Positions 1-50,727 of a stretch of 55,249 nucleotides of DNA are shown here, piece after piece. Position numbers and translations under genes: made by a program. The DNA comes from an uncultured Lentisphaerales bacterium (GTDB lineage: Bacteria; Verrucomicrobiota; Lentisphaeria; JABSQK01; UBA12247), in contig CALSSJ010000041.1 in the NCBI GenBank assembly GCA_943788985.1, positions 1 through 55,249 on the forward strand, in the 5' to 3' direction. Numbering within the stretch: the first letter of the stretch is position 1; every line of letters begins with the position of its first letter. A model generated the notes under the pieces. That model saw only the letters and a list, made by a program, of their open reading frames with translations, ran no database searches and was not told the DNA's origin.

Positions 1-3000
1 GACTACCTGCGGTTCTACCTGGATGGTGAGTTGGCCGCAAGCTGGAGCGGCGAGTTGGACTGGCTCACAGTGGCCTTTTCAGTCTCTGCTGGTTTACACG
101 ACTTTCGCTGGGTCTACGAGAAAGATGTTTCAGATGCGGCCGGCGACGACCGCGCGTGGATCGATGACGTATCCTGGCCCGACCAGGGCGAATGGTCCGC
201 CCATGATACCTTTGCCGCCCCCTTGGATGCCGGACGCTGGTCCAGCAGCAATTCCGGAACGGGGAGCGCTCCCGCCAGCGCCAACGGCAGCGTCACGCTA
301 GCCACGGGCAGCAATGGTGCGAGCAGCATCACCAGCACCTCCATGCCTCAGAATGAAGGCTTGTTGGCCGCCTTTAGTTTCATTGGCGAAGGCGAGGCAC
401 ACGTGCTCTTTGAGCTACTCGATGGCCGCAGCGTCGCAGTCGAAATTGGCCCCGATCAGGCTGCCGCCGAACATTCGGGGACCGCCCGAATCGTGGGCGG
501 CCAAGATGCAGAAGACGTCTGGCCGTGGGTAGCAGGGCTGGCCACTCGCGGTGTGCAAGACGGTTTCCAAGCTCAATTCTGCGGCGGCACTCTCATTCAC
601 CCCAGCTGGGTGCTCACTGCCGCGCACTGCATCGAAGGGGTCCAGGCCGAAACTGTGGATGTCATTCTGGGCCGACGCGATCTGTCCTCCTCTGATGGAG
701 AGCGCATCCCCGTGGCAGAGATCATCCCACTCCCCGGCTACGATCCGGTTACCCTGGACCGCGATCTGGCTCTGCTGCGGCTAGAAACACCTTCCACCAT
801 CACGCCACTGCCTCTGATCACTAGCGCAGATCAATACGCACCGGGCGTCGTCGCGACGATCCTTGGCTGGGGAACACTATCGGAAGGAGGCGCTTCGCCC
901 AATCGCCTTCAAATCGCCGAAGTCCCGATCGTATCCAACGAGACCGCAAACGCCTCGCCTCTGCTCAGCGGGGTCACCGACAACATGTTCGCCGCCGGTT
1001 TCGCAAGCGGCGGGGTCGACACCTGCCAGGGCGACAGTGGTGGCCCCATCATTGTCCCTGACGGACAGTTGTGGCACCTCGCCGGCGTCACAAGCTGGGG
1101 AATCGGCTGCGCCCAGCCACAAGGCTACGGCCTCTACACGCGCATCGAGAACTTCCTGACCTGGATCAGTGACCACGTCGGCGCGCGCCAACTCACCGCG
1201 CGGCTCCTTCAGGGCGACGTCGTCCTTGCGGAGTCCGCAACCCTCAACACGAGCGCGGACGCCTTTCGAATCGCCCTGCGCACCGATGACGGCATTCGGC
1301 TCGAACAGAACGGGCTGACCATTTGGGAGGCAGAGACTGCAGCTTCCGGCACGATTACGGGACTTGCGATCTCCGCACTTTCTGATGAAGGCCCCACAAC
1401 CATCTCCCTAGACGAGGTCTCACTCTACGATGGCGCTGCCCAAGCGCCGCCTGCGGTCATCCCTGAGTTCTCGCTGCCCCGCGCGCCCATCGGCGGCCAA
1501 GTAAGCTGTGATGTCGTGCTTGTCGGGCCCACCGGCACCTATGCCGTGACCAGCGAACTGCACTACCCCTCTGCCTACCTAACACCGCTGCAGTTGCCCG
1601 CCAACATCACCCACCAAGCCCCGGGAATCCTGAGCGTGGTCATTCCCGAAGGGCACGTTGGGCCCGACCACGATCCTCGGCACCGTCTTGTTTTCCGTAT
1701 CTGCCACTGCCCCAGTCGAGGCAACCGTACAGACTGCGAACTCCGCAACCACCATCGCCGATTCGATCGAGCAAGGGTCGGCTACCCTGGCCATCATCAA
1801 CGCCGTGCCGTACGACCTATTCGAGGCACCGCTGGTCTTGGATCCGTTGAGCGGGACAGTGACCGGATCCGTAGACGGAGCCAGCGCAGAGGATAACGAG
1901 CCAACCCACACGAGCTTGGGGAAGGGCGCTTCACTCTGGTTTTCATGGACCGCACCAGCGGATGGGCACGTGTCCTTCGATACGTTCGGAAGTCTCTTCG
2001 ACACCGTTCTGGTGGCCTACCAGGGTGCATCGCCTTGGACTCCGCTCACCCCGCTCGCCGAAAACGATGACGTCTACCAGACCCTGCGCAGCCGCATTGT
2101 GCTGCCAGTAAAGGCCCGACAGAATGTCCGGATCGCCCTCGACCAGGTGTCCCAGGCCAACGCCACTTTTCAGCTACAGCACAGTTTTCGCCCCACCCTG
2201 ATCCAGGTTGGGGGCACGACCGAAGATTGGCAGGGAGCCCCGGAATACCAGTGGGAAAGCTTCGGAAATGCCCCCTGGACCGCAGATGCTGGCGCGCTGC
2301 GCAGTGGCGCTGCAGGAGACCTGGGCCTGAGCGGCATCGAAACCTACGCCGCAGTCGGTACGGGCAGCGTCGAGTTTCGGCTACGCACCAGCTCGGAATT
2401 CACCTACGACTTCTTGGTCTTCACCATAGATGACGTCATCACAGCGAAGTGGAGTGGTGAGATCGCCTGGCAAACCTATACGGCCAACGTGAGCCCTGGC
2501 CTGCATCGCTTCTCCTGGATGTACAGCAAGGACCCCAGCTTCGGTGCCTTTGAGGATGCGGTCTGGATTGATGATATCAGCCTGCCGGCCCCAGACCCGC
2601 TCCAGCTAGCACGAACTCCCGGGACGACCTGGCTACATGTCGACGAGGGGAATTCGGTGGTCGCCTCGGTGGGTGTAGAGAATCCAGTCGGACTGCTTTC
2701 CTACGAGTGGACCTACGACGGCAACTCCGTCCCCGGAGACTTGCCCACAACAACCATTTCCCCCGATTTCGATTCGATCACTCACCCTACGCTCTCCGAG
2801 ACCACAGATTTGGAATGCCATATCACCGACCTGGGCACGGGAAAAACCGCAACTCTGAGCTGGGTGGTCACGGTAAACGATCAGGATCAACCGCCTCCAA
2901 CGCCAACAATCCGCGTGGTCCCGACCGTCGCCCGCGTCGGATCTGCTGTGGTTGGTGAACTCACTCCAGCACTGGATCTGGACGGGGATGCCGTCCAATA

Positions 3001-4134
3001 CCGCTTTCGTTGGGAAGGCGCAGGCAGAACCATCGTCGGTCCCATTCTACCAGCCGGCACCGCGACCCGCGGCCAGGTCTGGCAATTTACGGTCACCCCA
3101 GAGACCTTTCCCTATGGCAACCGGGTGCAGCATGCGGGAGTCACCACCTCGGTGACCTTTGCGAACTCCGCACCAGTTATCCAGGATCAATTCATTGCGA
3201 TCTCCGCAGCTGTGACTGCACTTGCACCGGACGCCCATGATCCCGACGGAGACGCGCTCACCGTAGAGATTCTGAGCGCACCGCAGCACGGGACCTGGAA
3301 CGGCACTCACTACACGGTTGCGAACTTCGCAGCCTGGGAAGACGAGATCGTCTGGCGGGTGCGAGACACGGAAGGGGCAACCGCGAGCGCAAAGCTTACC
3401 CTGCTTCCTCGGCGGCTGGCGGCTCCCGCTGCTGGCAACCGGAGAGCAAGTGGAGATTGGTGCAGCGATCGGCGCCATCGCCGGTGTGGGCGCAGAAGAC
3501 ACGATCGCCGCGACGCCGCTGTTCGCCCAGGGCAGCGGCAGCGACCTAGACGTGGACCTGCGAGCACTTGGTGCCCCGGCAGTTTGGGAGCTGCCACTCT
3601 CAGAGACGACGGTCCTGCAATGGGACCCCGCGCTGGTTCCACCGCTCGGCCTCACAATCGGGCCCGCGCAGCTCGACATGCGTGCCGTTGCGGAGTTCGC
3701 AACCACCGAAAACGCAGTCATTACCACGACCGCGCATGAATTCGAGCTCACGCTCCACCCGGGTTGGAACTGGTGCTCCCTGCCGATTCAACCGCTGCAG
3801 CCAACCGTGAACGACCTCTTTCCAGCGGCAAGATGTGTACTGTTGGAACGACGGCTGGAAAAGGCCAGCGCTCCTCAATGCCGGGGAGGGCTTTACCGTC
3901 TTCGTGCCCGGTGAAGGCTACATAATTCAGATCTCAGGCTACGAGAACGCACTCGAGCCCAGCGGAACGGGCTGGCAACTGGTCGGCCCCACCTCGAAAC
4001 CACCCTACCAGGCGGTGCCAGCCACGGACCTAAGCGCCGATCCAGTCTGGACGGCAGCCGGCGATGCCTTTGAGCGCGCCGAAATGCTCCAACCAGGTAC
4101 AGCCTACTGGGTCTGGCGCAGCACGGCACCTTAA
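1..4134 (+). CDS. Large secreted multidomain S1A trypsin-like serine protease (5' partial; split by three apparent +1 homopolymer indels)
   Basis: Frame 1 is open from base 1 (DYLRFYLDGELAASW...). The trypsin domain (~490-1179) has R|IVGG, FCGGTLI..WVLTAAHC, DLALLRL and GVDTCQGDSGGP. Removing one base from each of the runs GGG 1651-1653, CCC 3399-3401 and TTT 3819-3821 joins ORFs 31..1896, 1658..3739, 3318..3914 and 3835..4134 into one frame of >1370 aa. It also has a duplicated 'F.ID....WSG...W....G.H.F.W.Y.KD...D.WIDD' domain, Ig-like repeats and a C-terminal GW(N/Q) domain. Confidence 0.85.
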
Positions 4135-4278
4135 CTCCGTGCCCCTGCCCCTCCCTGCCGCTGCCCGTGCCCTATCTCCGACACGGCGAGAGGCCGAAGC
4201 CGCTGCTCTCCCAGGCTCCACGCGGCTTCACGCGACGCGACTCCCGTCGCTGACTGCACTACGAACTCACGCCTTCTC

Positions 4279-4450
4279 CCTGAGTGAAAGGCTCGGTCCC
4301 TCATGACTGGGCTGACGCCGTGACGATGACTGCTGGTCGGGCGTCATCATGTCAGGGCGGCGTCGGGAGTCATGGCGTCCCCCAGTCACCAAGTCCTATT
4401 CCATCAAGCCCAGGCGTGACGGCTCGCGGGGGCAGCAGGACTCGGTGACT
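4279..4450. repeat. 172-bp structured repeat, copy 1 (REP/REPIN-like)
   Basis: Near-identical to 6166-6337. It contains nested imperfect inverted repeats (catgact...agtcatg; ctgacgccg...cggcgtcgg; gatgac...gtcatc). Confidence 0.9.
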
Positions 4451-4476
4451 CGATGACTTGGTGACGCCCGATGACA

Positions 4477-4578
4477 TCATGACTGGGCTGACGCCGTGAC
4501 GATGACTGCTGGTCGGGCGTCATCATGTCAGGGCGGCGTCGGGAGTCTTGGCGTCACCCAGTCACCAAGTCCTATTCC
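4477..4578. repeat. Partial (102-bp) tandem copy 2 of the same repeat
   Basis: tcatgactgggctgacgccg...aagtcctattcc matches 4301-4402 with only about 2 substitutions. Confidence 0.9.
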
Positions 4579-4580
4579 GG

Positions 4581-4667
4581 AATTTGCATAGGTATTCGGG
4601 ACTTAAGCTCTCCAATATGCATGGTTATTCGGGAATACGATCCCTAAATATCCCTTAGTATTCGGGA
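4581..4667 (+). repeat. 33-bp-period mini-array AAT(A/T)T-N7-TATTCGGGA-N12 upstream of the ATPase gene
   Basis: TATTCGGGA occurs at 4593, 4626 and 4659, exactly 33 bp apart. AATTT or AATAT starts 12 bp before each copy. Confidence 0.8.
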
Positions 4668-4747
4668 ATCATGCTCTGATAGTGCGACCTTGGGATCTGC
4701 CGAAGATTGCCGGGATGCCGAAGCAATACGAGCCTGGAGAAATTGAC

Positions 4748-6058
4748 GTGAAACGACTTGCTGAGAAGAGCCTGCTGACGTGGGCAGAACATCCCAAGCG
4801 AAAAGCACTGATCATTCGTGGAGCGCGACAAGTGGGCAAGACATGGCTTGTCGAGAATTGTCTGGCGAAGCAGTTTGAGCGCGTTGTCAAGATAGACCTC
4901 GAGAGTCAGCCGCAATTTCACGCAGCTTTTGCAGGAGAGCTGAGTCCTAAAGCAATGCTCAACGCCATCGAGCCCTACACGGAGCGAATCCTTCCCGGAC
5001 AGACATTGCTGTTTATTGATGAGATTCAAGCCTGTCCAAGGGCGATTACGGCATTGCGCTATTTCTATGAACAGCTACCCGAGCTGCACGTTGTGGCGGC
5101 GGGTTCAATGCTCGAGTTCGCTCTGGGGGAATACTCCGTACCGGTTGGGCGGGTCCAGTATCTTCACCTTTCGCCCATGACGTTCTATGAGTACTTGCTG
5201 GCCATGGGCAAGAACGCCGCAGCAGAAATGACACTGGAGCATCCGCGGGAACACTCACAGGCTACTGTGGACGCGTTGCACGAGCAGTTGCGGGACTATT
5301 TCTTCATCGGGGGAATGCCCGAAGCTGTGGCCACCTATCGTGACACGGGATCGCGACTCGAAGCCTACGACGTACAGGCGCAGATCGTCACATCCTTTCG
5401 TGATGACTTTGCCAAATACCGCCCAGTCGTCAATTCCGCGTGTTTGGATGCCGTGTTTGAAGCAGCCGCCAAGTCAGTGGGACAACAGATTATTTACACG
5501 CAGCTCTATGCGCAGGCCACTGGCAAGACTAACCACAAGGCCTTTGACCTTCTGTGCAGGGCGAAGCTATTCAGTAAGATCTGCTCTGCCACGCCCTCGG
5601 GGTTGCCTTTGGGGCACTCGCAGGGAAAACGCTTCAAGGCGGCGATGCTGGATATTGGCCTCATGCAACATGTGTGCGGGCTACATCCGGCGATGGCCGT
5701 TGGCAACCATGACCTGATGGCAATTTATCGCGGTCAGATGGCTGAGCAGTTCGTCGCCCAGGAGATGTTGGCGTGGCATAGCGAATCGTTGTACTACTGG
5801 TCTCGTGCAACAAAAGGATCTACTGCGGAAGTTGACTATCTTGCAATTCACGACGGCAAGATCCATCCACTCGAAGTCAAATCAGGCCCTGCGGGACGCC
5901 TCCGCAGTCTGCACCGATGCTTGGAGACCTATCCCAACTGCGAACAAGGCTGGGTTCTACAACAGGGGCCCTATCAGGAATTACCTGAACAGGCACTGGT
6001 ATTCTGGCCACTGTACGCCACAGCACAGCTCGGCAATCGCCAGAGACTGCCGCTATAG
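4748..6058 (+). CDS. AAA+ ATPase (AAA_14-type) with C-terminal DUF4143/PD-(D/E)XK-like domain
   Basis: GTG start at 4748 after GGAG. Walker A is GARQVGKT, Walker B is LLFIDEIQ, and the GGMPEAV motif is present. The C-terminus reads EVDYL...PLEVKSG. Confidence 0.9.
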   Translation: MKRLAEKSLLTWAEHPKRKALIIRGARQVGKTWLVENCLAKQFERVVKIDLESQPQFHAAFAGELSPKAMLNAIEPYTERILPGQTLLFIDEIQACPRAITALRYFYEQLPELHVVAAGSMLEFALGEYSVPVGRVQYLHLSPMTFYEYLLAMGKNAAAEMTLEHPREHSQATVDALHEQLRDYFFIGGMPEAVATYRDTGSRLEAYDVQAQIVTSFRDDFAKYRPVVNSACLDAVFEAAAKSVGQQIIYTQLYAQATGKTNHKAFDLLCRAKLFSKICSATPSGLPLGHSQGKRFKAAMLDIGLMQHVCGLHPAMAVGNHDLMAIYRGQMAEQFVAQEMLAWHSESLYYWSRATKGSTAEVDYLAIHDGKIHPLEVKSGPAGRLRSLHRCLETYPNCEQGWVLQQGPYQELPEQALVFWPLYATAQLGNRQRLPL

Positions 6059-6165
6059 ACGCCCCGAAGTGGATGAACATGCTGTATTGCGAGGGGGCAT
6101 CTGTCCGATACCTTTGTGGTTGGCTGGCCGGCTAGCCTGTCGGACTTAGGATGATCGGCTGCAAA

Positions 6166-6337
6166 CCTGAGCGAAAGGCTCGGCCCCTCATGACTGTGTT
6201 GACGCCGTGACGATAACTGCTGGTCGGGCGTCATCATGTCAGGGCGTCGTCGGGAGTCATGGCGTCCCCGAGTCACCAAGTCCTATTCTATCACGCCCAG
6301 GCGTGACTGCTCGCGGGTGTAGCAGGACTCGGTGACT
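6166..6337. repeat. 172-bp structured repeat, copy 3 (direct orientation relative to copy 1)
   Basis: Aligns end to end with 4279-4450 with scattered substitutions. Confidence 0.9.
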
Positions 6338-6560
6338 TGGACAGGCGAGAGCTGGATATCCTGCGGGTCTTGTGGACGCGGGGCAGGTGCATCGCGCCCG
6401 ATGGGCACGAGGCACTGAACGAGCCGCAGCGTCGCGGCTACACCAACACCCGTAAGCTGATGCAGTTGATGGCCGAGAAGGGACTGGTACGCGAGACGAG
6501 TCGCACGCACCGCTACCGCGCCGCCGGCTCGGAAACAGAGGGGCAGTCGCGCTTGTTAAT
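6337..6560 (+). pseudogene. BlaI/MecI/CopY-family repressor fragment
   Basis: ELDILRVLW..G.......HEAL.....GYT...KLMQLMAEKGLV......HRYRAA is the BlaI winged-helix N-terminus. The 5' end abuts the repeat, the dimerisation domain is missing, and there is no M56 peptidase partner. Confidence 0.7.
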
Positions 6561-6759
6561 GATCCCAATACCCTGTCCAAACGTCGAAGGCCCTCGCCTT
6601 CAATTGACGTGCGAAGCTCTCGCGACCACGACACCGGATTTGGGCTTCCGGATCTCGGCCTCGCCGACAATAATCCGGCCACGCTGTAACGGTATTCTGG
6701 TCGCATTGGGATAATGTGTCATTTTCTCGTACGACTCAAGTTCGCACAAGGGAGTTAAA

Positions 6760-7413
6760 ATGTTGCAGGCACTCACAGACCGGCTGGCTCAACATCCAAT
6801 CGCCTACGATCAATTGCGCAGGGTGATCGAGTTTAATTTTGTAGCCCTTCACCGGGCGCTGAGCGAGGCGCGAGAACGTCTAAACATTGACGACAAAGAC
6901 GGCTGGATTCTTGATCTTCCTTGCGGTACCGGAATCTTTGCAACAAATATTGAGGAGGACGCCTACGTCGGGGCGGATCTCGAGGCACTCTACGTAAGCG
7001 CTGCCCGGCGTCGGCACCCGGCACGCCATTTCCAAGTAGCGGATGGAACCGCCCTTCCCTACGCCGACGAATCGTTCCAAGGGGCCATATTAATGGGGTT
7101 TCTGCATCACCTAGATGAGCCGACTGTGGGAGCCGTGTTGGCAGAAGTGGCTCGGGTGCTACGCCCAGACGCGTGGCTAATTCTCATTGAGGACGCACCC
7201 AGCCCGGGCTTTCGTAATCCAATCGGCTGGTGTTTGCAGAAGCTCGATGTAGGAGATCACATTCGCGAAAGCGACGCCTATACGCCGCTGCTGGAGCCAG
7301 CATTTAGAGAACAGTACCGGCGCTCCTTTGCCAGTGGCTTTTGGAACTACACCATGTGGCTGGGACGTAAGCAAGATCTTGGGGACCGAGAAGCCACTCC
7401 CGCGGAGCGCTGA
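6760..7413 (+). CDS. Class I SAM-dependent methyltransferase (Methyltransf_11-like)
   Basis: Motifs ILDLPCGTG, YVGAD, ADGTALPYADESF, FLHHL and EVARVLRP. RBS GGGAG precedes the ATG. Confidence 0.85.
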   Translation: MLQALTDRLAQHPIAYDQLRRVIEFNFVALHRALSEARERLNIDDKDGWILDLPCGTGIFATNIEEDAYVGADLEALYVSAARRRHPARHFQVADGTALPYADESFQGAILMGFLHHLDEPTVGAVLAEVARVLRPDAWLILIEDAPSPGFRNPIGWCLQKLDVGDHIRESDAYTPLLEPAFREQYRRSFASGFWNYTMWLGRKQDLGDREATPAER

Positions 7414-7824
7414 ACGGAAGTTGCGAAGTCCGCAACCAGAACGGAGCGCCACGCGCGGGACAATGACTGCATCGGTCCAGAGCCGGACCTCAGACAGGGC
7501 GGCTAGGCTGCGAACGAGCGAGGACTTTCATGTGAGTAGCTCCCACGCGCCAAGTTGCACCGCCGGTCACGCCATCGACTGGCTGAAGCAGCAGAGCAAC
7601 GCGAAAAAGCGGCAGCTGCATTTTCCCGAATGCCCTACTCGGCCCATAGAGCGCACCCGACGCCTATCAGGAGCTGTATGTGTGTGCGGCCATCGAGAAT
7701 CCAGCACCAAAAACGAAGGCTGGCGTCTTCGCTATGATCAGCAACATCGATGAAAACGCCAGGGTACCCGATGGCGGGCTTTCGGATTGCCCTGTAATCG
7801 GACAAGCCCGGCTCAAATAGACGG

Positions 7825-9528
7825 CTAATCTGCTGGAGCTTGAGGAAGAAGGCTGGCGTGGGTTTTCGGAAGGTAAGGGCCAAGCAGCCGCACATTGTAC
7901 TCAAGCTTCTCGCGAAACTGCCAATAGGTGCCGATCGCGATCTCCTTATGAGCCTCTCCAGCAGTAAACTTTGCATCGACATACGCTTGAAGTTCGTCGG
8001 ACAACGGCCCAGCCAGCAGCAGCCATAACCGCGAATCCTCGGCCATTGGGGTCCGCTCGAAGAAACTAAGATTGATTGAGTCTATGCAGTCGTAGCCGGA
8101 GAACACCCACGCACATCCGTAGCTGCGGACCTCTGCCGCCGCTATCAGACCTGGCAGGTCCGGGTAAGCTAGAAGACGGTCATGCTGTTTGTCGAAGCCA
8201 GCCGGTCCCAACGAGTCTCGTAATTGCTGGATCGTATTGGCTAGATCCTGCCGCACTGTGACGCCGCGCAACAGAGGTGCGGCACACGCCACCGTGTTAT
8301 CGCCCCAACTCCCGCTACGATAAGACTTGTGGATGCAGAACCGGAATGACAGCGTCAGCAGACACACCGCTGCCGCGATAGAGGCGATCCTGCGTCGCCC
8401 AGGCGGCAGCTTGCAGAGCAGCCAGGTCAACTGCGGCGCAAGCAGTATACCTGCCCAGCCGTACATCGTGAAAATCTTGTTACCGCTGCCAAGCAGCGCG
8501 AGCACAATCCCAGCCGGAAAGAGCAGAAAGATTCCCAGCTCAGGTCTCGCATGACGCGCTCCGGCCCGCCACCGCCTCAGCTCGTTTAGGAGAACGACCA
8601 ATGCGCAAGCGCATCCCGCTCGGCCAAGATTGGCGGTGCTCCGGATGACCAGTGCAGTGGAACAGACAATCAGGACCACACACAACAGCGAGGCGAGATG
8701 CGGCCGCTTGCGAGTCACCACTCCCGCCAGGACGAAATAGGCGGCAGCAAGCACCACCATGCGTCCCCAGCTGCTCACACTGCCGAGTGCCTCAAGGGGA
8801 CTCTTGTAGCAAGTTTCCTGAGCCACACGCAGAATTTCCACCAAATCTCGATACTGAGCCGCATGGATCCACGTCCAGAGACCGAACAGGACGCCCGATA
8901 CCGCCACATAGATGACCAGGTTCAACAGCAGAACACGCCCACTCCGACGAAGCAGAACCAGCAACACGCAGCCCCCAAATCCAGCCATCAGAATCCCGTT
9001 TGGCATGCGCCCGGTATAGGCCAAGAACGCCCCCGCTCCCGCGATTGCAGCTCCGATACGCCCGGCCACTTCCCCCCCCCGTGCCGCGATCAACCCGCTG
9101 CACCAGGCAGTCGCGCCGAGGAAGGTAACCGCGGAGTACCAGAGCGTCTTGTAACAGGGAAAGCTAAGCGAAACCGCCGCGAACGCACAGAACACGATCA
9201 TGGCGCTCCGTGAGCATTGACTCTGCCCTTCGCCGAGCCCGTGCACCACGTAGCCTGCATAGCAACTGACGCCAAGGATCAGGATCAGATGAAGGATCCG
9301 GTACAGCAGCAAACCATGTCCAAAGAGCTCGCCAAGCGGGTAAAACAACAAGTGATAGGTGGTAAAGAACGAAGACTCTGGCCCGAAGCGAAGCAAATGA
9401 AGAATCAGGCCCTCATCAGTGACATCGAAGTACCGAGTAAAACCCCATAGGGTAATCAGGCAAGCTAGCGTCAGCCCGGTGCCACCCACTACGAGCATGG
9501 GCCTCGAATGTACGTCTTTATTCATCAA
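7825..9528 (-). CDS. Multi-pass membrane protein, possible GT-C-fold glycosyltransferase
   Basis: About 12 hydrophobic segments, an N-terminal loop motif FDVTDEG, and a soluble C-terminal domain. It lies directly downstream of a flippase remnant. Confidence 0.6.
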   Translation of the reverse strand: MMNKDVHSRPMLVVGGTGLTLACLITLWGFTRYFDVTDEGLILHLLRFGPESSFFTTYHLLFYPLGELFGHGLLLYRILHLILILGVSCYAGYVVHGLGEGQSQCSRSAMIVFCAFAAVSLSFPCYKTLWYSAVTFLGATAWCSGLIAARGGEVAGRIGAAIAGAGAFLAYTGRMPNGILMAGFGGCVLLVLLRRSGRVLLLNLVIYVAVSGVLFGLWTWIHAAQYRDLVEILRVAQETCYKSPLEALGSVSSWGRMVVLAAAYFVLAGVVTRKRPHLASLLCVVLIVCSTALVIRSTANLGRAGCACALVVLLNELRRWRAGARHARPELGIFLLFPAGIVLALLGSGNKIFTMYGWAGILLAPQLTWLLCKLPPGRRRIASIAAAVCLLTLSFRFCIHKSYRSGSWGDNTVACAAPLLRGVTVRQDLANTIQQLRDSLGPAGFDKQHDRLLAYPDLPGLIAAAEVRSYGCAWVFSGYDCIDSINLSFFERTPMAEDSRLWLLLAGPLSDELQAYVDAKFTAGEAHKEIAIGTYWQFREKLEYNVRLLGPYLPKTHASLLPQAPAD

Positions 9529-10400
9529 TCGCGGACTGGGGCTTCATCGGAGGGAATGGCATGATAACGCCTCCACGCCTTTCTGCAAACCACGAACGAG
9601 GCAGGGATTCGTAGCAAAGAGGCGATCATGTAAGCCATGCCAATCCCGGTGAAACCCATGCGTTGCGCCGAACGCAATGGTATAGAGCAGGGGCCTGCCC
9701 GTAAAATGAGGGAGGCGACCATCAACGGCTCTTCTTTGTGCGCTCGAACGAACACGGATAAGGCCAGGCTACAGCGCAACAGAAATGCGGCAGGCAAAAA
9801 TAGAACCGCCTTTGTCGCCGGTAGCACGGGGCTGGGCTTGTCACCAGTAATCAGGACCGGAAAGACAATAATCGCCACAGAGAGCACCGCGAGCAGGACT
9901 CCATGCTTGGGAATCGTCACCCACAAAATGCACTTGAGCTGATCGTGAAATCTGCGCTAGTCCTTCTTGGCGACGTAGCCGCCAAACTCAGGCGTCCTCA
10001 CGGTCACCCACGTGCCAGTGATGCTGGTCACGGCAGTCATCAGATTGATTGTCATACCCAGCCGGCCAGCAACTGCGACACCTTCAACTGCCAAGATGGT
10101 CATGTTAGCCGGTACGTCACACACCAGGTGGTCAGCGCCATTCGCCACTACATCGGGATCTCTTCACGAGCTGCGGCGGCAAGCAGGGCAATGGATCCAG
10201 ACAGCGCTTCGCCGTAGGTGGAGGCGTCGGCAGGGCCAACGGCCTCAAGCCCGTCAGCACCTTGCCAAAGCACGAGGCAGAGCGAGGCGATGCCAAGAGC
10301 AATGACCGTAAGAAACCAGAGCCGGGAACGCTGCAAACTGAGACCTCCTTCCACTGAATTGTCAGCTGTTACCACGCGGTTGCACGAAGATCTCGACTCG
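9525..10400 (-). pseudogene. Degraded Wzx-like polysaccharide flippase
   Basis: Fragments in several frames with internal stops: 'AGRLGMTINLMTAVTSITGTWVTVRTPEFGGYVAKKD*' and 'SVFVRAHKEEPLMVASL' resemble O-antigen translocase motifs. Confidence 0.55.
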
Positions 10401-10654
10401 GACGCGCTGTGAGACGGCTGTCCGGGTGGTCCCAAAGCAGCTGTCCAAATGTCCCTTGGTGAGGACAGGCGATAGTCATCAACCCGTCTTGACGAGTGTG
10501 CAACTATTAGACCGGAGGCGGAACCCAATTCGGTTTGAGCGTCAGGGGGCAGGATTCATGAATGACGGGGGTATTCCTGCCGCGACCGATCAACAGGGGC
10601 ATATCGAAAATAGGACTCGAGGCCGTCGCTTGATAACGGGCCCGGAGTGGGTTA

Positions 10655-11341
10655 ATGCCCTCAATGAAAAAGATCCTCCTCCTCGCTCGAGTTGTGCGCC
10701 GTCACCAAGCAATACGCTGGTGCCAATGCCACCATCGTCGCGGTCGATGGTGTCGACCTTGCCTTGAGCCGCGGCCAGTTTGTCGCGCTGCATGGCCCCA
10801 GCGGCTGTGGAAAGTCTACCTTGATGCTCAGGCCGGTTCCTTGCTCGGGCCAAACAGCGGATCGGTCACGATCTGCGGCCAGCGGCCCTACGAGCTATCC
10901 AGTGAAGCGCGCGCCGCCTTTCGGGCCCGCCACGTAGGCTTCGTCTTTCAGAGATTTCACCTTATTCCGTACCTGCGCGTCCTCGAAAATCTGCTGACAC
11001 CAACCCTGGCCCTGGGAATCGACCATGCCGAACAGCGCGCGGCTGAACTCCTTGAGCAGTTCGGCTTGAGCCAGCGGAAGAATCATCGCCCCGAGGCACT
11101 CAGCGTGGGGAAGCAACAGCGAGTGGCGCTGGCCCGTGCTCTGCTGCCGAAGCCGGAATTGGTACTAGCAGACGAGCCCACCGGAAATCTCGACGAAGCC
11201 AATTCCACGGCGGTTCTAGATGTGCTGGCTAGCTACGCAGCATCAGGCCATACAGTCCTGATGGTCAACCACGATCCCCAAGCGCGCGATCGTGCGAATC
11301 GCCGAATCGCGATGGCCGCCGGAAAACTTACGCCCGAATAG
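10655..11341 (+). pseudogene. LolD/MacB-type ABC transporter ATP-binding protein, frameshifted and orphan
   Basis: Walker A GPSGCGKST is in one frame. GFVFQRFHLIP, LSVGKQQRVALARAL and LADEPTGNLD are in another, with the shift near 10829. The H-loop is the atypical VNHD, and no permease gene is adjacent. Confidence 0.75.
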
Positions 11342-11424
11342 CCCCAGGATGGCCCACCCAATTGTTGACAAGCCGGTCGGCTTCGTTAAGGTTCGCATTT
11401 AATTCGCATAGAGCGGGACCTCTC

Positions 11425-12171
11425 ATGACCAGCACGTACTTATCAGCGCGCCATACCCTGTGCCTTGGCCTTCTTTTCTGCCTCCCCGTCTTTGCACAGG
11501 AAGAAACTGCGGTAACCGACCCCAAGATCGAACTGCAAGCCCTACTAAGGGAGGGCGGTACACCGATGATGCTGCTCATGCTTTTATCGGTTTTTGCAAC
11601 CTTCATGGTCGTCTACTATTTCCTCACACTTCGCATTAATTTGCTGATGCCCCGGGCGTTTCACATGGAAGCAGCCGAACTGGCCTCACGCGGAGATTCG
11701 CTGGCACTGTCCGCCGTGTGCGCCGAGAGCGGCTGCGCTGGTGCTCGCATTGTGGGCTCGGCTGCGAGAATGCTCAGTGAGAATCCAAACGCGGACTTCC
11801 AATCGCTTCGGGATGCTTTGGAAGACGAAGGTAGCCGCCAGGCCGCCGCCCTGTGGCAGCGGATTCACTATCTGCTTGACTGTGCGGTTGTGGCTCCAAT
11901 GCTTGGCCTGCTCGGTACGGTTCTCGGTATGATGGAGTCATTTCATGGCTTGGCTGAAGACTTTGGCTCTGTGAAGCCTGCCGTGCTGGCCTCCGGGGTA
12001 TCTCAAGCATTGGTAACTACCGCCGGCGGGATGTGTGTCGGCATTGTCGGCATGGTGTTGTACGCCTATTTCCGCGGCCGCGTGACCTCACTAATCGCCC
12101 AGCTGGAAGAACGCTGCAACCTGGTACTGCAGCGCCTCTATGCCACGACCCATCGTCAGCAGAAACCATGA
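11425..12171 (+). CDS. MotA/TolQ/ExbB proton channel protein
   Basis: Motifs APMLGLLGTVLGMM.SF and GVSQALVTTAGG. Signal-like N-terminus from ATG 11425. Confidence 0.92.
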   Translation: MTSTYLSARHTLCLGLLFCLPVFAQEETAVTDPKIELQALLREGGTPMMLLMLLSVFATFMVVYYFLTLRINLLMPRAFHMEAAELASRGDSLALSAVCAESGCAGARIVGSAARMLSENPNADFQSLRDALEDEGSRQAAALWQRIHYLLDCAVVAPMLGLLGTVLGMMESFHGLAEDFGSVKPAVLASGVSQALVTTAGGMCVGIVGMVLYAYFRGRVTSLIAQLEERCNLVLQRLYATTHRQQKP

Positions 12172-12599
12172 ACTTTCGCAAGAACATTCAGCAGCAGGAG
12201 ACGGGCTTTCAAATGGCTCCGATGGTGGACGTCGTCTTCCTCCTCCTGCTATTTTTCATGGTAGCCTCGGTCTATGCGCAGTGGGAGACTAAGATCGGAA
12301 TCGAAGTGCCAACCGCGGGCGACGCCGACGCGCGGACGCCGCAGGAAATCCTGATCAACATAGACAAGGAGGGCCAGTTGTGGGTTAACGGCTTCATCCT
12401 CTCGCGTTTTATGTTGGAGAGCAATCTCAAGAAGATGTCCCGGATTCGCAGTGGCCAGCCGATCATTATCCGGGCGGATAAGAAGACGGATTACGAGCAC
12501 GTCATCTCGGTGCTAGATATGTGCCGACAGGCGGATATCTGGAACGTGTCTTTTGCCACGCTTCCGCCCAAGAAAAACGCGGTAGCACCCACGCCGTGA
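12168..12599 (+). CDS. ExbD/TolR biopolymer transport protein
   Basis: Motifs MAPMVDVVFLLLLFFMV and IIIRADKKTDYEHVISVLD. ATGA overlap with the exbB-like gene. Confidence 0.92.
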   Translation: MNFRKNIQQQETGFQMAPMVDVVFLLLLFFMVASVYAQWETKIGIEVPTAGDADARTPQEILINIDKEGQLWVNGFILSRFMLESNLKKMSRIRSGQPIIIRADKKTDYEHVISVLDMCRQADIWNVSFATLPPKKNAVAPTP

Positions 12600-15004
12600 C
12601 TGCGTTCCGCCTGCTTCTTGCGCTAGCCGCCATAGCTACTACGCTCCCTGCGCAGGATCCGACTGAGCCGGGCGACGCTCTGTTCAAGAATGGCGAGGAA
12701 GCCTATCGCTTCGCCGAAGGGTACTACCGCCGCCACCACTACGATCGAGCCGCTGCGCAATTTGAACAGGTCGTGCAGACCTTTCCCGAGTTCGATAAAC
12801 GGGACAAGGCGTGCTTCCTCTGGGCGGAGTCCCTGAGGCTGGGCAAGAAATTCGATCTGGCCGGGCGCGTCTATGTCACGGTCGTCCAGAGTTTTCCCGA
12901 AAGCGAGTACGCGCCACGCTCTTCAGTCGTGCTCGGCAGCCTGCTCCTGAAAGAAGGTAAAGTAGATGACGCCATTGTCGTGCTCGATATGGGCATGGAG
13001 CTTAAGCCACCGGAGCAATATCGAGAGGATTTGAACTACTTTCTGGGCGTAGCCAAGCACCGCAAAGGGGAGGTGGCAGCCGCTCTGAAGCATTTTGCTC
13101 TTCTGCCCGGTGAATTCGACGCCGAGCATGCCTACCGCGCGCATGCCCGCCTCAACACCGGCTATCTGCAGCGATCTGCCGGCAAGGATGACGAAGCTAA
13201 GACGGCTTTTGCCTCACTGATCAAAGACGATGGCGTGGCACCCAAGGTGATCGAGGAAGCGCTCTCGCAGCTTGCGGATATCGCCTTTGCCGCAAGTGAC
13301 CACGAAGAAGCCGTTCGCTACTACCGGCAGCAGCTCGATGCCTACCCCTTGGGCGCCTTCGCAAACCGCGGCATGGTCGAACTGAGCTGGAGCCTGTACC
13401 ACCTCGAGCGCTACCAGGAAGTAATCGAACTGCTCAAGGACCAGGCTAATATTTCCACCGAAGATACGCTCTACCTCCTCGGCAGTAGCAGCAAGCAACT
13501 CGGCCAATACGAGGCCGCAATTGCCAGGTTTCAAGAGATGCAAAAGGCTTACCCCGATGGGCGCTTGGGAAAGCTCGCCAAGTTTGACCTGATTGAGTGC
13601 GCCTTCCGCCTCAAGCGCTTTGAAGAAGCAATTGCCAAAGCCAAGCAATTTCTCGAGCAGCACGCCAATCACAAGCAGGCTTCCGACGCCGCCTACTTTC
13701 TTGCCCACAGCCTGACCGAAGCCGGGCAACTCGATGAGGCAGCAAGCCAGTTCGAAACGCTCTACGAGCGCTACGGCGATACCTGGGAGTACCGTGAAGA
13801 TACATTGTTCATCTTGGCCGACATCTATTCAAAGCTGAATCGGCCAGAGGACTCCGCCGCTGCCCTCCGCCGGGTCATGGCCGTAGATTCCTCCAAACAA
13901 AGAGACCGCGCCTTGCTGCTGGCCGCCGAAGCCGCTCAGAATGCCGCCAATCTCGACGCTGCTATTGCCGACTACCGGCGCTTCCTTAAAGAGTTTCCAA
14001 AGAGTGAGCTGTTGCCAACTGCCATGCTCCAACTGGCGGACTTGCTCATGCGTCGCGAGGACAAGAGCGCTGCCGAAGTCCTGACCTCCTTTCTCGAGGC
14101 TTTTCCCGAGCACGCCTTTGTGCCAAGGGCCTACTACCTGCGTGGCAATCTCCAATACAACGAAAACCAGTTCGCAACGGGCATCTCCGACTTTCGCCGG
14201 GCAATCGATTACCCGAACTTTCCCGAGCGAGACTTCGCACAGTTGATGCTGGCATACAGCCTTTGGGAACTCGGTATCCGCAACGACAGCCCCGACGCCG
14301 GGAAAGAAGCGCTCAAGATTTTTGCCGAGCTGATCGAAATCGAATCACTCAGCCAGGACTTCGTACCCGAGCTGCTGCAGGTCATCGGCGAGAAGTACGT
14401 GGAGCTGAATAACCTTGGCGCCGCGGAGCGCTGCTTTGACATGCTCAGCGCTCACGAGAATGAGCAGATCGCACTCCAGGGACTGCTAGGCAAAGGCAAG
14501 ATCGCCTTCGGCCGTGAGCAATTTGATGACGCACGAGTGGCCTTTAACGAAGTGCGTACCCGAGCCGCCGATGATCGCGAATTACTGAGCGAAGCTATCT
14601 CCTACCTCGGTGAAACTCTGCGCCGTCAATCCCGCATCTCAGAAGCGCACGTCGTCCTTCGGGACGGGTTGGACCTAGATATCAGGAACACCACCACTAA
14701 GTCCCGGCTGCTGCTCTCGTTGGCACATGTGCTGCTCGCAGAAAACGACGAAGAGCGCGCCGTGGACTACGCCTCCAGTGTCTACTTTGTCTACCACGAT
14801 CCAGTGATGGCACCAGAGGCCATGCTCCTAACCCTCTCCATTCAGCTCCGCCGTGGAGAGCATAAAGAAGCCTGCGCCGTTGTCGCAGAACTCACAGATC
14901 GGTTTCCCGGTGCTTGGGCCTCTTTCCAAAATCGCCCGGATAACGCACAGCTGGTCGAGCAGATTCAGACAGCCTGTGAAAAACCCGCAGCCCCAACTCC
15001 CTGA
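12596..15004 (+). CDS. Periplasmic tetratricopeptide-repeat protein (BamD/CpoB-like repeats)
   Basis: GTGA overlap start and a signal peptide (VTAFRLLLALAAIATTLPAQ). Many repeats of the form 'A...F..V...FP.S.....A'. Confidence 0.85.
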   Translation: MTAFRLLLALAAIATTLPAQDPTEPGDALFKNGEEAYRFAEGYYRRHHYDRAAAQFEQVVQTFPEFDKRDKACFLWAESLRLGKKFDLAGRVYVTVVQSFPESEYAPRSSVVLGSLLLKEGKVDDAIVVLDMGMELKPPEQYREDLNYFLGVAKHRKGEVAAALKHFALLPGEFDAEHAYRAHARLNTGYLQRSAGKDDEAKTAFASLIKDDGVAPKVIEEALSQLADIAFAASDHEEAVRYYRQQLDAYPLGAFANRGMVELSWSLYHLERYQEVIELLKDQANISTEDTLYLLGSSSKQLGQYEAAIARFQEMQKAYPDGRLGKLAKFDLIECAFRLKRFEEAIAKAKQFLEQHANHKQASDAAYFLAHSLTEAGQLDEAASQFETLYERYGDTWEYREDTLFILADIYSKLNRPEDSAAALRRVMAVDSSKQRDRALLLAAEAAQNAANLDAAIADYRRFLKEFPKSELLPTAMLQLADLLMRREDKSAAEVLTSFLEAFPEHAFVPRAYYLRGNLQYNENQFATGISDFRRAIDYPNFPERDFAQLMLAYSLWELGIRNDSPDAGKEALKIFAELIEIESLSQDFVPELLQVIGEKYVELNNLGAAERCFDMLSAHENEQIALQGLLGKGKIAFGREQFDDARVAFNEVRTRAADDRELLSEAISYLGETLRRQSRISEAHVVLRDGLDLDIRNTTTKSRLLLSLAHVLLAENDEERAVDYASSVYFVYHDPVMAPEAMLLTLSIQLRRGEHKEACAVVAELTDRFPGAWASFQNRPDNAQLVEQIQTACEKPAAPTP

Positions 15005-15015
15005 GACGGGCTGTC

Positions 15016-15726
15016 TTGAACGTTCTAGTCACCAACGACGACGGGATCGATGCCGCAGGGCTGCGCCTTCTGGTCCTTGCTCTCGCAGATCTTGGCCATG
15101 ACGTGTACGTCATCGCGCCAGATACCTGTCACAGCGCGGGAAGCATGCGCATCACAGTCGGGCCAAAGCTCACTGTCACCTCGCGCGACGTGGCCGGTGC
15201 CACCGCTGCCATGGCTACCAGTGGCACGCCTGTGGACTGCGTCAAATTAGCTCTGACCGTGCTCGATATTCCACGCCCCGACCTGCTCGTCTCTGGCATC
15301 AACTTTGGCCTGAACGTCGCCCGCGACCTACTTTATTCGGGAACCGTGGGCGCTGCCCTCGAAGGCGCTGACTCCTCCCTCCCGTCCATTGCGATCTCCG
15401 CAGAGCGCAGCTCGGAAGGCGATGTCATCTATGAACAGGCGGCAACTACGCTGAGCGACGCCTTTCCCCGTATCTGGAACCGGATCCAGCTCGGGACGCG
15501 ACGCGAGTTCGTCAACATCAACGTTCCGATGACGCCCATGAAGGGCGTGCGCTGGACCCGAGTGAGCGAAGGAAGCTACTTCGTCGACGGCTACGACGTC
15601 CAAGACGGAACCTACCAGCTCAACGGCCCACGCACACACGCTGAGCAGGACATCGACACAGACCTGGGAGCCATCGAGGCTGGCTACGCTTCCATCAGCT
15701 TTGTCCGCCATCGCTGGGAAAGCTAA
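15016..15726 (+). CDS. surE: 5'/3'-nucleotidase SurE
   Basis: Motifs VLVTNDDGIDAAGL, GTPVDCV and PDLLVSGINFGLNV..DLLYSGTVGAALEG. Confidence 0.95.
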   Translation: MNVLVTNDDGIDAAGLRLLVLALADLGHDVYVIAPDTCHSAGSMRITVGPKLTVTSRDVAGATAAMATSGTPVDCVKLALTVLDIPRPDLLVSGINFGLNVARDLLYSGTVGAALEGADSSLPSIAISAERSSEGDVIYEQAATTLSDAFPRIWNRIQLGTRREFVNINVPMTPMKGVRWTRVSEGSYFVDGYDVQDGTYQLNGPRTHAEQDIDTDLGAIEAGYASISFVRHRWES

Positions 15727-15730
15727 GCGG

Positions 15731-15760
15731 CACTTCTGCCGGATTGATCCGGCAGAAGTG
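15731..15760. terminator. Perfect 14-bp inverted repeat after surE (terminator-like hairpin)
   Basis: CACTTCTGCCGGAT-TG-ATCCGGCAGAAGTG, 5 bp after the surE stop and between convergent genes. The U-tract is weak. Confidence 0.6.
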
Positions 15761-15910
15761 AGCTTCACTTTGGGGGCATTGCAGAAAGGGAGCAGGCTCC
15801 GAATGCCCGATCAATCCCGCGCTCCCAGTAGGCGCTTCCCAGTTCGGGAGAGGATCAGGAGGCGAAAAACAGTTGCCCCGTCTTGCCCCCTGATCTCAGA
15901 CCACCGTTTC

Positions 15911-16603
15911 TTAGTCGTCCGAAGACATGAACAGCCGTAGCACGTACCAGAACATCATTGCGACTGAAGCAAACAGCTGCAACGCTGCGCCCACATGGCG
16001 ATCTTCCGGGTAGTGATGCAGAATATTGGACGTGTCGTATAGGATGGCGCAGCCCGCCAAAGCCACCATCGCCACCGAGAACCAAGTGCCCATCTGAAAG
16101 CCAAAGATGACGCTGGCCACGATTCCGACCAGGGCTACCACAAATCCCCAGACCAGCACGCTGCGCAGGAACGAGAAGTCTTTCCGCGTGATCAGGGCGA
16201 CTGCAGTAAGCGCACCAAAGCCCAAGAGCGTGGTGATCGCTGCGGATTCAATCACGCCACCGGCCATTCTCTCCGCGATGAAAAGCATCGGGACAAAGAT
16301 CAAAGCTTGCGCCAAAACGAAGCCGCCCAACGCTGCATACTGCGCAAGCACGGACTCCGCACTATGCGCCAGCCGGCTCGCAAACCATGACACCACCATA
16401 AAGGCACCCAGAATCGCCAACCAAGGAATGCTTACCATCGCCTGAGCGATTGGTCTCGCCAGACCCGAACTGAATAGCCCGACCTCAATCAGCGTGAAGG
16501 CCCCGATGGCGCCAAAGAGATGCACGTACGTGCGTGTAATGAAGGCCGCGCGGGCATCCTCGCTCAATGCCGATACCGGGATGCCCATTGTTGCTGTGTT
16601 CAT
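15911..16603 (-). CDS. Bax inhibitor-1/YccA family membrane protein
   Basis: Seven hydrophobic segments, with RAAFITRTYVHL, TRKDFSFL and ILYDTSNI...AALQLFASV. Confidence 0.9.
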   Translation of the reverse strand: MNTATMGIPVSALSEDARAAFITRTYVHLFGAIGAFTLIEVGLFSSGLARPIAQAMVSIPWLAILGAFMVVSWFASRLAHSAESVLAQYAALGGFVLAQALIFVPMLFIAERMAGGVIESAAITTLLGFGALTAVALITRKDFSFLRSVLVWGFVVALVGIVASVIFGFQMGTWFSVAMVALAGCAILYDTSNILHHYPEDRHVGAALQLFASVAMMFWYVLRLFMSSDD

Positions 16604-16793
16604 CGTCTCTCACTTTAATCTACGGCTGCAAGCGGAGGTGTACATCTATCGTGCAACCAAACAATGTCAATCAATGTTATGATGGGAATCGAAAGGGAAA
16701 GAAGTTGCCGGAGTTGCCTGTTGACATCTGCTCACGCACCTCTATTGGTATCGGTTTGCCAATTTCCTTGTGATCCCATATGGAGTTTCGTCT

Positions 16794-17006
16794 GTGAATA
16801 ACGACTACGTCAAGCAGGCCATTAAGAAAGTTCCGGACCGTCTCGTTCTGGTTCGTATTGCATCTGAGCGCGCGAAAGACCTGGCTCGCGGAGCCGGAGC
16901 GCTTGTAGAAACCCTTCCCGCCGAGAAGGGCTGCTACCTCGATATCGCGCTGAAGGAAATTGGTGCTGGTAAGATTATCGTAGATCCGGCCTCGCTGGAA
17001 GCATAG
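16794..17006 (+). CDS. rpoZ: RNA polymerase omega subunit
   Basis: GTG start after GGAG. LVLVRIASERAKDLARGA..LV...LDIALKEI..GKI matches the short omega pattern. Confidence 0.8.
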   Translation: MNNDYVKQAIKKVPDRLVLVRIASERAKDLARGAGALVETLPAEKGCYLDIALKEIGAGKIIVDPASLEA

Positions 17007-17034
17007 GCTTTTTCGCCACCAGCGACTCTCTATC

Positions 17035-50651: not shown

Positions 50652-50727
50652 GCTCCGGTAGCTCAGGGGATAGAGCAACGGTCTTCTAAACCGTCGGTCG
50701 CTGGTTCGATCCCAGCCCGGAGTGCCA
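50652..50727 (+). tRNA. tRNA-Arg (anticodon TCT)
   Basis: Acceptor stem GCTCCGG/CCGGAGT, D-arm GCTCAGGGGATAGAGC, anticodon arm ACGGT-CTTCTAA-ACCGT, T-loop GGTTCGATCC and an encoded CCA. Confidence 0.97.

Follow-up and report, generated by a model that had tools for sequence, protein, structure and literature searches.

We describe a short repeat array and the gene behind it in a 55,249-nt stretch of DNA (the window), which is the entire contig CALSSJ010000041.1 of an uncultured Lentisphaerales bacterium and belongs to a 48-contig, 83.6%-complete, 4.58-Mb assembly. The array lies at 4581..4683 on the forward strand, and a gene for a 436-residue protein follows on the same strand at 4748..6058; on the evidence of Pfam, PADLOC and a structure model, its product combines AAA_14 and DUF4143 domains and belongs to the PADLOC family PDC-S01. 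Comparison with the upstream regions of homologous genes suggests that the array is probably a private, phased promoter-operator read by the gene's own product, which would bind it cooperatively, head to tail, and repress its own expression.

The array and its gene

Repeat finding detects a 21-nt unit in three copies (4581-4601, 4614-4634 and 4647-4667) with start-to-start spacings of 33 and 33 nt, units 2 and 3 being 86% and 76% identical to unit 1. Each unit is laid out as AATWT, 7 nt and TATTCGGGA, followed by a 12-nt segment, confirming the alternation of two motifs with fixed 7- and 12-nt segments that had been noticed when this DNA was first read without comparisons (the sequence-only reading). 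Counted with these segments, the units span 4581-4613, 4614-4646 and 4647-4679, and a -10-like hexamer after unit 3 completes the array. The sequence-only reading had also placed the array about 80 bp before the start codon, and the last TATTCGGGA indeed lies 80 nt upstream of the GTG at 4748. The best self-match of the upstream region is at a lag of 33 nt (14 of 16 positions), and relative to the start codon the copies are placed at -163, -130 and -97.

Three boxes can be placed in the array, all on the forward strand. Box 1, CATAGGTATTCGGGACT (4587..4603, position -163), was set in the register of the orthogroup weight matrix introduced below; it carries a -35-like hexamer, TAGGTA (4589-4594), and its right half is an exact TATTCGGGA. 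Box 2, CATGGTTATTCGGGAAT (4620..4636, position -130), with the -35-like TGGTTA (4622-4627), is the best-scoring box of the window at 3.4 bits, and the proximal box 3, CCTTAGTATTCGGGAAT (4653..4669), with the -35-like TTAGTA (4655-4660), aligns without gaps to the proximal box of an 88%-identical relative, L034. All three window boxes align gap-free to those of the nearest relatives (L034 and L001 compared). The right half, TATTCGGGA(A/C)T, is kept, and the TTG on the left is replaced by TAG, TGG or TTA, leaving a degenerate left part (CCTTG in relatives) and an invariant right part, TATTCGGGAAT.

Each box is followed by a -10-like element. CCAATAT (4612..4618) and TAAATAT (4645..4651) lie 17-18 nt past the hexamers of boxes 1 and 2, respectively, on the same strand; both are weak (3/6), both contain an AATAT motif, and both occupy the place in the unit at which the family consensus has TttAaAaT. 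The third, GATAGT (4678..4683, same strand; 4/6), is found 17 nt past the box-3 hexamer and is a candidate proximal promoter element. The two motifs of the "dual motif" originally proposed are thus real, but the unit is better described as one box of ~18 nt plus a -10-like hexamer, to which AATAT belongs. The presumed 5' leader that separates box 3 from the start codon contains two copies of TGCCGAAG, 18 nt apart, at 4698-4723.

With both strands counted, the whole assembly contains the 9-mer TATTCGGGA 21 times, three of these in the array, and the combination AATWT-N7-TATTCGGGA is found genome-wide at these three places only. With up to one mismatch, the 11-mer TATTCGGGAAT has 52 matches in the genome against ~42 expected, with the 33-nt phase nowhere else, and the 9-mer has 9 matches in the window against 7.9 expected, which is not unusual. 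Since a simple motif count is unremarkable, the signal lies in the clustering and the exact phase. No other phased box cluster of the kind that a regulon would have was found in the assembled genome, which makes the site private to this gene. Two box-like 11-mers 17 nt apart on contig C44 (56541-56568), within a 405-residue open reading frame (ORF), are probably a chance pair.

The gene most likely starts at GTG 4748 within the ORF 4682-6058, since a GGAG ribosome-binding site (4737..4740, forward strand) lies 7 nt ahead of this codon and all homologue alignments begin there; the alternative GTG 4682 used by gene callers would give 458 residues, compared with 434-443 in relatives. Pfam finds PF13173 (AAA_14, E 4.3e-26) followed by PF13635 (DUF4143, E 4.6e-26) and nothing else, hence no match to a Rep-family initiator, and NCBIfam has no match for the protein. 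The PADLOC profile PDLC04788 of PDC-S01 aligns at full length (protein residues 1-430 on profile positions 1-439 of 448; E 3.8e-132, 439 bits), and six more PDC-S01 profiles also match. Invariant in 47 sequences are the Walker A residues G30 and K31, the Walker B residues D91 and E92, and E361, D363, E376 and K378.

An AlphaFold model (predicted local distance difference test, pLDDT, 89.9) divides the protein into an AAA+ domain (1-165), a helical lid (166-224), a winged helix (225-302) and a PD-(D/E)XK domain (303-436), with the catalytic D...E-x-K residues on the model strands 361-368 and 371-377. The winged helix has the order H-H-H-beta-wing-beta, made up of a helix at 230-242, a short helix at 250-252, a helix at 259-271 and strands at 275-282 and 296-300. 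Its putative recognition helix is 259-271, of which residues 259-263 read G-K-T-N-H in this protein. Residues 1-311 superpose on the archaeal AAA+ ATPases PAB2304 (2qen, Z 16.5) and SSO1545 (2fna, Z 15.4), covering both entirely, and match the NBD-HD-WHD (nucleotide-binding, helical and winged-helix domain) modules of STAND proteins, with CED-4 and plant NLRs at Z 14-15. The structural matches listed span residues 1-347 of the model only and scarcely reach the C-terminal nuclease part. Modelled alone, the winged-helix domain reached a pLDDT of 56, too poor for a structure search, and by sequence the only match to solved structures is the midasin AAA domain, over residues 16-65. Two degraded paralogues elsewhere in the genome (C24:41416-42336 and C13:83202-84077) each carry an in-frame TAG, and an upstream array was not found for them.

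The 33-bp phase across homologues

Homologous upstream regions were collected in two sets, one from relatives of the genome (11 loci and 20 regions, 25-57% identity) and one with one genome per species from many phyla (80 loci, 36-88% identity over the best segment). From the second set we left out L073, L107, L108 and L110, which are N-terminally cut matches, and L076 and L063, which have less than 120 nt of upstream sequence. With the window, this gave 106 upstream regions, in which self-matches at lags of 10-80 nt were scored out of 16. The best lag is exactly 33 nt in 49 of the 106 and 31-35 nt in 58. By comparison, a best lag of 33 nt was found in 5 of 281 upstreams of other ORFs in the same loci, in 1 of the 89 that are mostly non-coding, and in 7 of 1060 shuffles. 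At a score of at least 13/16, a lag of 31-35 nt is present in 55/106 homologue upstreams versus 1/276 controls, 0/86 mostly non-coding controls and 3/1060 shuffles. All other 5-nt bands of lag hold 0-5 of the 106 real sequences, except 64-68 nt, twice the period, with 24. The array has two copies in 40, three in 25 and four to six in 4 of the 69 loci that score at least 12/16.

The 33-bp phasing is thus a trait of the family, co-inherited with the gene. Box sequences vary between clades, and in paralogues at 25-40% identity the boxes are unrelated while the period is maintained. Young arrays in relatives (L013, L017 and L061) consist of whole 33-nt units that are identical, as plain tandem duplications would be. 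In the distant paralogues L014, L023, L025 and L032, the box core is repeated in inverted form within each 33-nt unit, AAAAGTGTA ... TACACTTTT, so that some subfamilies may read palindromic sites within the 33-nt period. A third set comprised the 30 loci (L113-L142) with the best Pfam DUF4143 scores in the phylum, which represent a subfamily of ~395 residues. Instead of the 33-nt array, other DUF4143 subfamilies have phased repeats of 22-23 nt (L114 and L137), or a TTGA-type promoter overlain by short palindromes, as at L118.

Box and promoter geometry in the orthogroup

For an orthogroup of 79 loci from many phyla at 42-88% identity, we derived the box from an iterated weight matrix. The resulting box, aCCTTGTATTTcTAAA, overlaps a -35-like hexamer, and its consensus, AaCCTTGTATTTTTAAA, begins with the -35-like TTGnnn. 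Neighbouring boxes are 33 nt apart in 55/63 cases and 32-34 nt apart in 59/63. Across the 79 upstream regions, the gene strand carries 137 matches and the opposite strand 4, and the proximal box starts at a median of 52.5 nt ahead of the start codon. A -10-like hexamer is found 16-19 nt past the TTGnnn of the distal box in 40/62 loci and of the proximal box in 14/62, compared with 46/385 random places; conversely, such a hexamer stands just ahead of the proximal box in 41/62 loci and just ahead of the distal box in 14/62. Where these hexamers fall puts box 1 on the -35 element and box 2 on the transcription start, which, as judged from these predicted elements, would be the classical layout of an autorepressed promoter.

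The same box is present in records from Planctomycetota, Desulfobacterota, Nitrospirota, Verrucomicrobiota, Bacteroidota, Fibrobacterota and Spirochaetota, so the box goes with the protein and not with the host. The gene stands alone, with no co-travelling partner: among 40 loci with at least 1.5 kb on each side, the most frequent neighbouring family within 1.8 kb was found in only 3.

Co-variation of the box with the predicted recognition helix

The helix 259-271 had been named as the recognition helix from the model before we scanned 70 loci for mutual information, corrected for the average product, of 431 protein columns with 22 box columns. Residues 259 and 260 come out first and second among the protein columns, and box positions 13, 15 and 16 are their partners. 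In three variants of the scan, restricted to 35 representatives sharing less than 75% identity, to the proximal box or to the distal box, residue 260 ranks first of 429 columns each time and residue 259 ranks between 3 and 8, and in none of 200 label permutations did both top columns fall inside the helix. Protein and box sequence change in step at these two residues, with which the predicted recognition helix begins.

Set against the right half of the box, the start of the helix reads like a code. GK..H, the class of the window, goes with CGGGAA, SK with TGGGAA or CGGAT, and HK with ATGGGAT. GP or GV is found with TCTAAA and GQ with TCTAC/T; NP..L accompanies TTTAAA, Y(Q/K) accompanies TAGAA, GA accompanies CTGAAA and (G/S)F accompanies TTGAA. 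In phylogenetically independent pairs, taken from a tree computed with the helix columns left out, ~9 of ~13 change in the same direction and ~0 in the opposite one. The sequence-only reading had proposed a search upstream of homologous genes for fixed-period repeats that co-vary with the protein, and this search was positive: the period recurs, and the boxes co-vary with the protein, most of all at residues 259 and 260. Of the two explanations it offered, the comparison favours cooperative sites for the ATPase, serving autoregulation or loading, as the recurring fixed-period repeats with a sequence that follows the protein would suggest.

The same data bear on whether the units could be tandemly duplicated promoters or sites for a host factor, read by RNA polymerase or a host regulator without binding of the ATPase. 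Every unit does have -35-like and -10-like hexamers 17-18 nt apart, and the young arrays of L013, L017 and L061 are simple duplications of the 33-nt unit. However, a good -10 hexamer usually follows the distal unit only (the 40/62 against 14/62 given above), the conserved box reaches 10 nt past the -35 hexamer, and phyla with promoters of different types, including Bacteroidota, have kept this box. Moreover, there is no linked gene for a host regulator, and the sequence of the box follows residues 259 and 260 of the protein. We consider such an origin of the array improbable.

Flanking sequence and transcription data

The block 4579-6165, which comprises the array, the gene and 107 nt, is enclosed by copies of a 172-176-nt repeat. 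On the left, 1.6 copies of this dispersed or tandem repeat occupy 4279..4578 on the forward strand (4301-4402 and 4477-4578 are 98% identical), which we regard as context outside the operator; on the right, a further copy at 6166..6337, also on the forward strand, is 93% identical to 4279-4450. Elsewhere in the genome, the repeat family forms long tandem arrays (C10:125214-127531 and C7:73597-74267), with another copy at C32:29896-30074 and single copies at other places. The repeat has strong internal inverted repeats, and public assemblies break within it; it may be MITE-like, a satellite or a structured element.

Where the long repeat meets the array, a palindrome of 10 bp without mismatches, ATTCCGGAAT, spans 4574-4583; it matches TATTCGGGAAT at 10 of 11 positions, 20 nt out of phase, and may have arisen by chance or be left over from the joining of the block. 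A related copy of the motif, TATTCCGGA, had been reported at 4573 as the junction with the long repeat. It does exist, with its first six bases inside the long repeat copy 4477-4578, but its distance of 20 nt from box 1 does not fit the phase of the array.

These surroundings raise the question of whether the array might be the end or recombination site of a one-gene mobile cassette, acted on by the nuclease or ATPase that the element itself encodes. The gene is scattered across many phyla at 50-88% identity, it lies here between copies of the 172-nt repeat, and the palindrome at the left junction resembles the box. Also, nucleotide similarity to the two closest relatives (metagenome-assembled genomes labelled Victivallales, 88% protein identity) is confined to the coding sequence and stops at its ends, 4745-6058, showing that the gene sits in unrelated contexts. 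Nevertheless, the boxes lie on one side of the gene and on one strand only, and no second or inverted set of boxes was found downstream of the gene. Flanking direct repeats of at least 20 nt are absent from the five nearest relatives, so the flanks seen here are peculiar to this genome rather than shared by the gene family, and further copies of the flanking repeat are scattered through this genome. On the same two observations we rejected the idea that insertion of this orthogroup generally leaves direct repeats as a footprint. A role of the array as a cassette end is, in our judgement, highly improbable.

The public RNA data were available as assembled contigs, and one contig from an RNA library spans the whole array (4549-5323). 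Its left end is shared with a DNA contig (4549-4675), which identifies that end as an assembly break in the flanking repeat and not as a transcription start. A second RNA run yielded contigs inside the coding sequence only (4782-6084), in which the absence of cover at 4546-4727 is uninformative.

The RNA-library contig over the array is also what might be expected if the array were transcribed and processed into small guides for the ATPase-nuclease, as in the TIGR-type arrays to which the sequence-only reading had likened it. According to the accessible text of PMC12045711, TIGR arrays mostly have 5-15 units, give 36-nt products and go with Tas proteins that contain a Nop domain. The likeness, two short conserved motifs alternating with 7- and 12-nt segments in a unit of ~33-36 nt, is superficial. 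Here there are three units of 33 nt and no Nop protein: none of the 13 ORFs of window positions 1-18195 has a Nop domain, and PF01798 has no match in the genome, assembled to the completeness given above, whereas four control archaea were positive. The would-be spacers, each the 12-nt segment plus AATAT, carry the conserved -10-like promoter element and are thus not free to vary as spacers, and in relatives the units are identical throughout. The RNA fold of 4575-4750 has a z of +0.34, no signal of structure, and Rfam at its gathering threshold finds only a tRNA at 50652 in the window. A guide-RNA array is almost certainly the wrong description, and we dropped this reading, together with that of any other structured RNA, on the Rfam, fold and Nop-domain negatives.

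At some distance from the array, the window also contains an open frame of 3352 residues on the reverse strand (39982-50040), and its cumulative GC skew turns near 47 kb.

Discussion

In the mechanism that we favour, the gene product would read the boxes through the N-terminal end of the recognition helix (residues 259-263) of its internal winged helix. Since the direct repeats lie on one strand at a fixed step of 33 bp (about three helical turns, ~112 Å), protomers would be arranged head to tail on one face of the DNA, where they may contact each other through asymmetric AAA+ interfaces. Occupied boxes would cover the -35 region and the transcription start and lower transcription, so that the protein would hold down its own level. 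We infer from sequence that the protein physically binds the boxes, that binding is cooperative and that the regulation is repression, as well as any part played by ATP.

Several observations weigh against this autorepressed operator. A repeat at a lag of 31-35 nt and a score of at least 12/16 is missing from 37 of the 106 homologue upstreams, and the ~395-residue DUF4143 subfamily mostly lacks the array, with a repeat at a lag of 32-33 nt and at least 13/16 in 3 of the 29 loci analysed and a period of 22-23 nt in two others; 2 of the 29 had less than 50 nt of upstream sequence. The boxes of the window itself are weak when scored with the orthogroup matrix: even the best falls short of the threshold of 8 bits, which places the window among the 5 of 79 loci with no called box. 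A consensus promoter scan of 4100-6500 found no promoter, and the -35- and -10-like hexamers of the window are poor (3-4/6). If the RNA-library contig 4549-5323 truly derives from RNA, some transcription begins upstream of the boxes. The winged helix of STAND proteins usually mediates oligomerisation rather than DNA reading. Lastly, the residue-base classes used for the count of independent pairs were defined after the table had been viewed, and each single sign test is far from significant (p 0.25-1); columns 34, 54, 138, 337 and 356, outside the winged helix, rank high as well, indicating phylogenetic carry-over in the co-variation signal.

The array might also have another use. Phased boxes could serve as an assembly or loading platform that nucleates an ATP-dependent head-to-tail oligomer, held there parked and inactive or poised, whose release or activation would be the real function, by analogy with initiator-iteron or Orc1/Cdc6-ORB nucleoprotein complexes. 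The order AAA+, lid and winged helix is common to Orc1/Cdc6 and the STAND oligomerisers, the step of 33 bp is strict and the orientation single, the Walker A and B and nuclease motifs are intact, and 29 of the 69 arrays have three to six boxes, more than a repressor needs. On the other hand, 40 of the 69 have two boxes only, the boxes sit exactly on the -35 element and the start site, and autoregulation suffices to explain them; the analysis does not separate loading from repression. We regard a loading platform as unlikely, and give the same low weight to its more specific form, in which the array would be the nucleation track on which a STAND-like ATPase-nuclease builds an ATP-driven head-to-tail filament or partial ring on its own promoter.

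Compared with known systems, the layout comes close to the iterons of plasmids such as those of pPS10 RepA, R6K pi and RK2 TrfA, which are short direct repeats, all pointing the same way and helically phased, that lie close to and ahead of the gene for the winged-helix Rep protein binding them. Iterons are private to each replicon, co-vary with Rep and serve both autoregulation and assembly. The resemblance is one of layout only, phased direct repeats beside the gene of a putative binding protein: the AAA+-lid-winged-helix-nuclease is not a Rep protein, the period is 33 and not ~22, and the gene is chromosomal, frequently with several paralogues in the same genome. Orc1/Cdc6 proteins share the succession of AAA+ domain and winged helix, and they too read repeated boxes beside their own gene; DNA-bound Orc1/Cdc6 structures are on the Foldseek list of the model (2qby_A, E 3.8e-6, template modelling scores 0.31/0.35; 2v1u_A, E 9e-6). 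However, the global superposition is weak, with a root-mean-square deviation of 9.5-10.7 Å, and the protein described here has an extra PD-(D/E)XK domain. ORB elements are inverted around an unwinding element, whereas the boxes of the orthogroup point one way (137 versus 4). The best structural matches over residues 1-311, PAB2304, SSO1545 and the STAND modules, lack the C-terminal nuclease, and we know of no DNA ligand for 2qen or 2fna.

PDC-S01 itself, a phage-defence candidate of PADLOC, is described as the fourth most common defence-type system, with ~39,000 copies (9,986 archaeal and 29,494 bacterial), and as unvalidated, in the accessible sections of PMC12988326. It comes from a list of 145 untested candidates that owe their status to genomic embedding only, according to the available text of bioRxiv 10.1101/2024.01.29.577857. 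One PDC-S01 system was included in a panel of eight candidates challenged with phages T7, T5 and T4 in E. coli B; four of the eight protected and the PDC-S01 system was not one of these, as far as the accessible part of bioRxiv 10.1101/2024.09.26.614923 reports. The visible text of PMC3424549 lists DUF4143 as a member of the PD-(D/E)XK superfamily with unknown function. The protein of the window agrees with PDC-S01 in its full-length match, in both Pfam domains (COG1373) and in standing without a conserved partner. The family is defined by the protein alone, and the accessible sections of PMC12988326, bioRxiv 10.1101/2024.01.29.577857 and PMC3424549 mention no upstream array. In the full-text literature, leaving aside the supplements of the preprints that define PDC-S01, we found no published description of an array upstream of this family. 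Measured against this literature, an operator- or iteron-like array tied to an AAA+-winged-helix-nuclease is a new version of a familiar type of array.

Should the array turn out to be a nucleation track after all, a single self-contained module of 1.6 kb would couple expression with assembly state and nuclease licensing, its specificity set by a simple, swappable code between helix residues 259-263 and box positions 13-16. The fourth most common 'defence' family would then consist of programmable, sequence-specific DNA-binding AAA+ nucleases, each with a private site. The more sobering outcome is a promoter-operator and not a new guide-RNA system. Even so, cloning the gene without its own upstream 150-200 bp, or together with that region in a host in which the protein represses the gene, would change its expression, and such altered expression in heterologous clones could bear on negative phage assays. 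For the PDC-S01 family, the phased, gene-private site is the first concrete predicted DNA ligand, and residues 259-263 are its candidate reading head.

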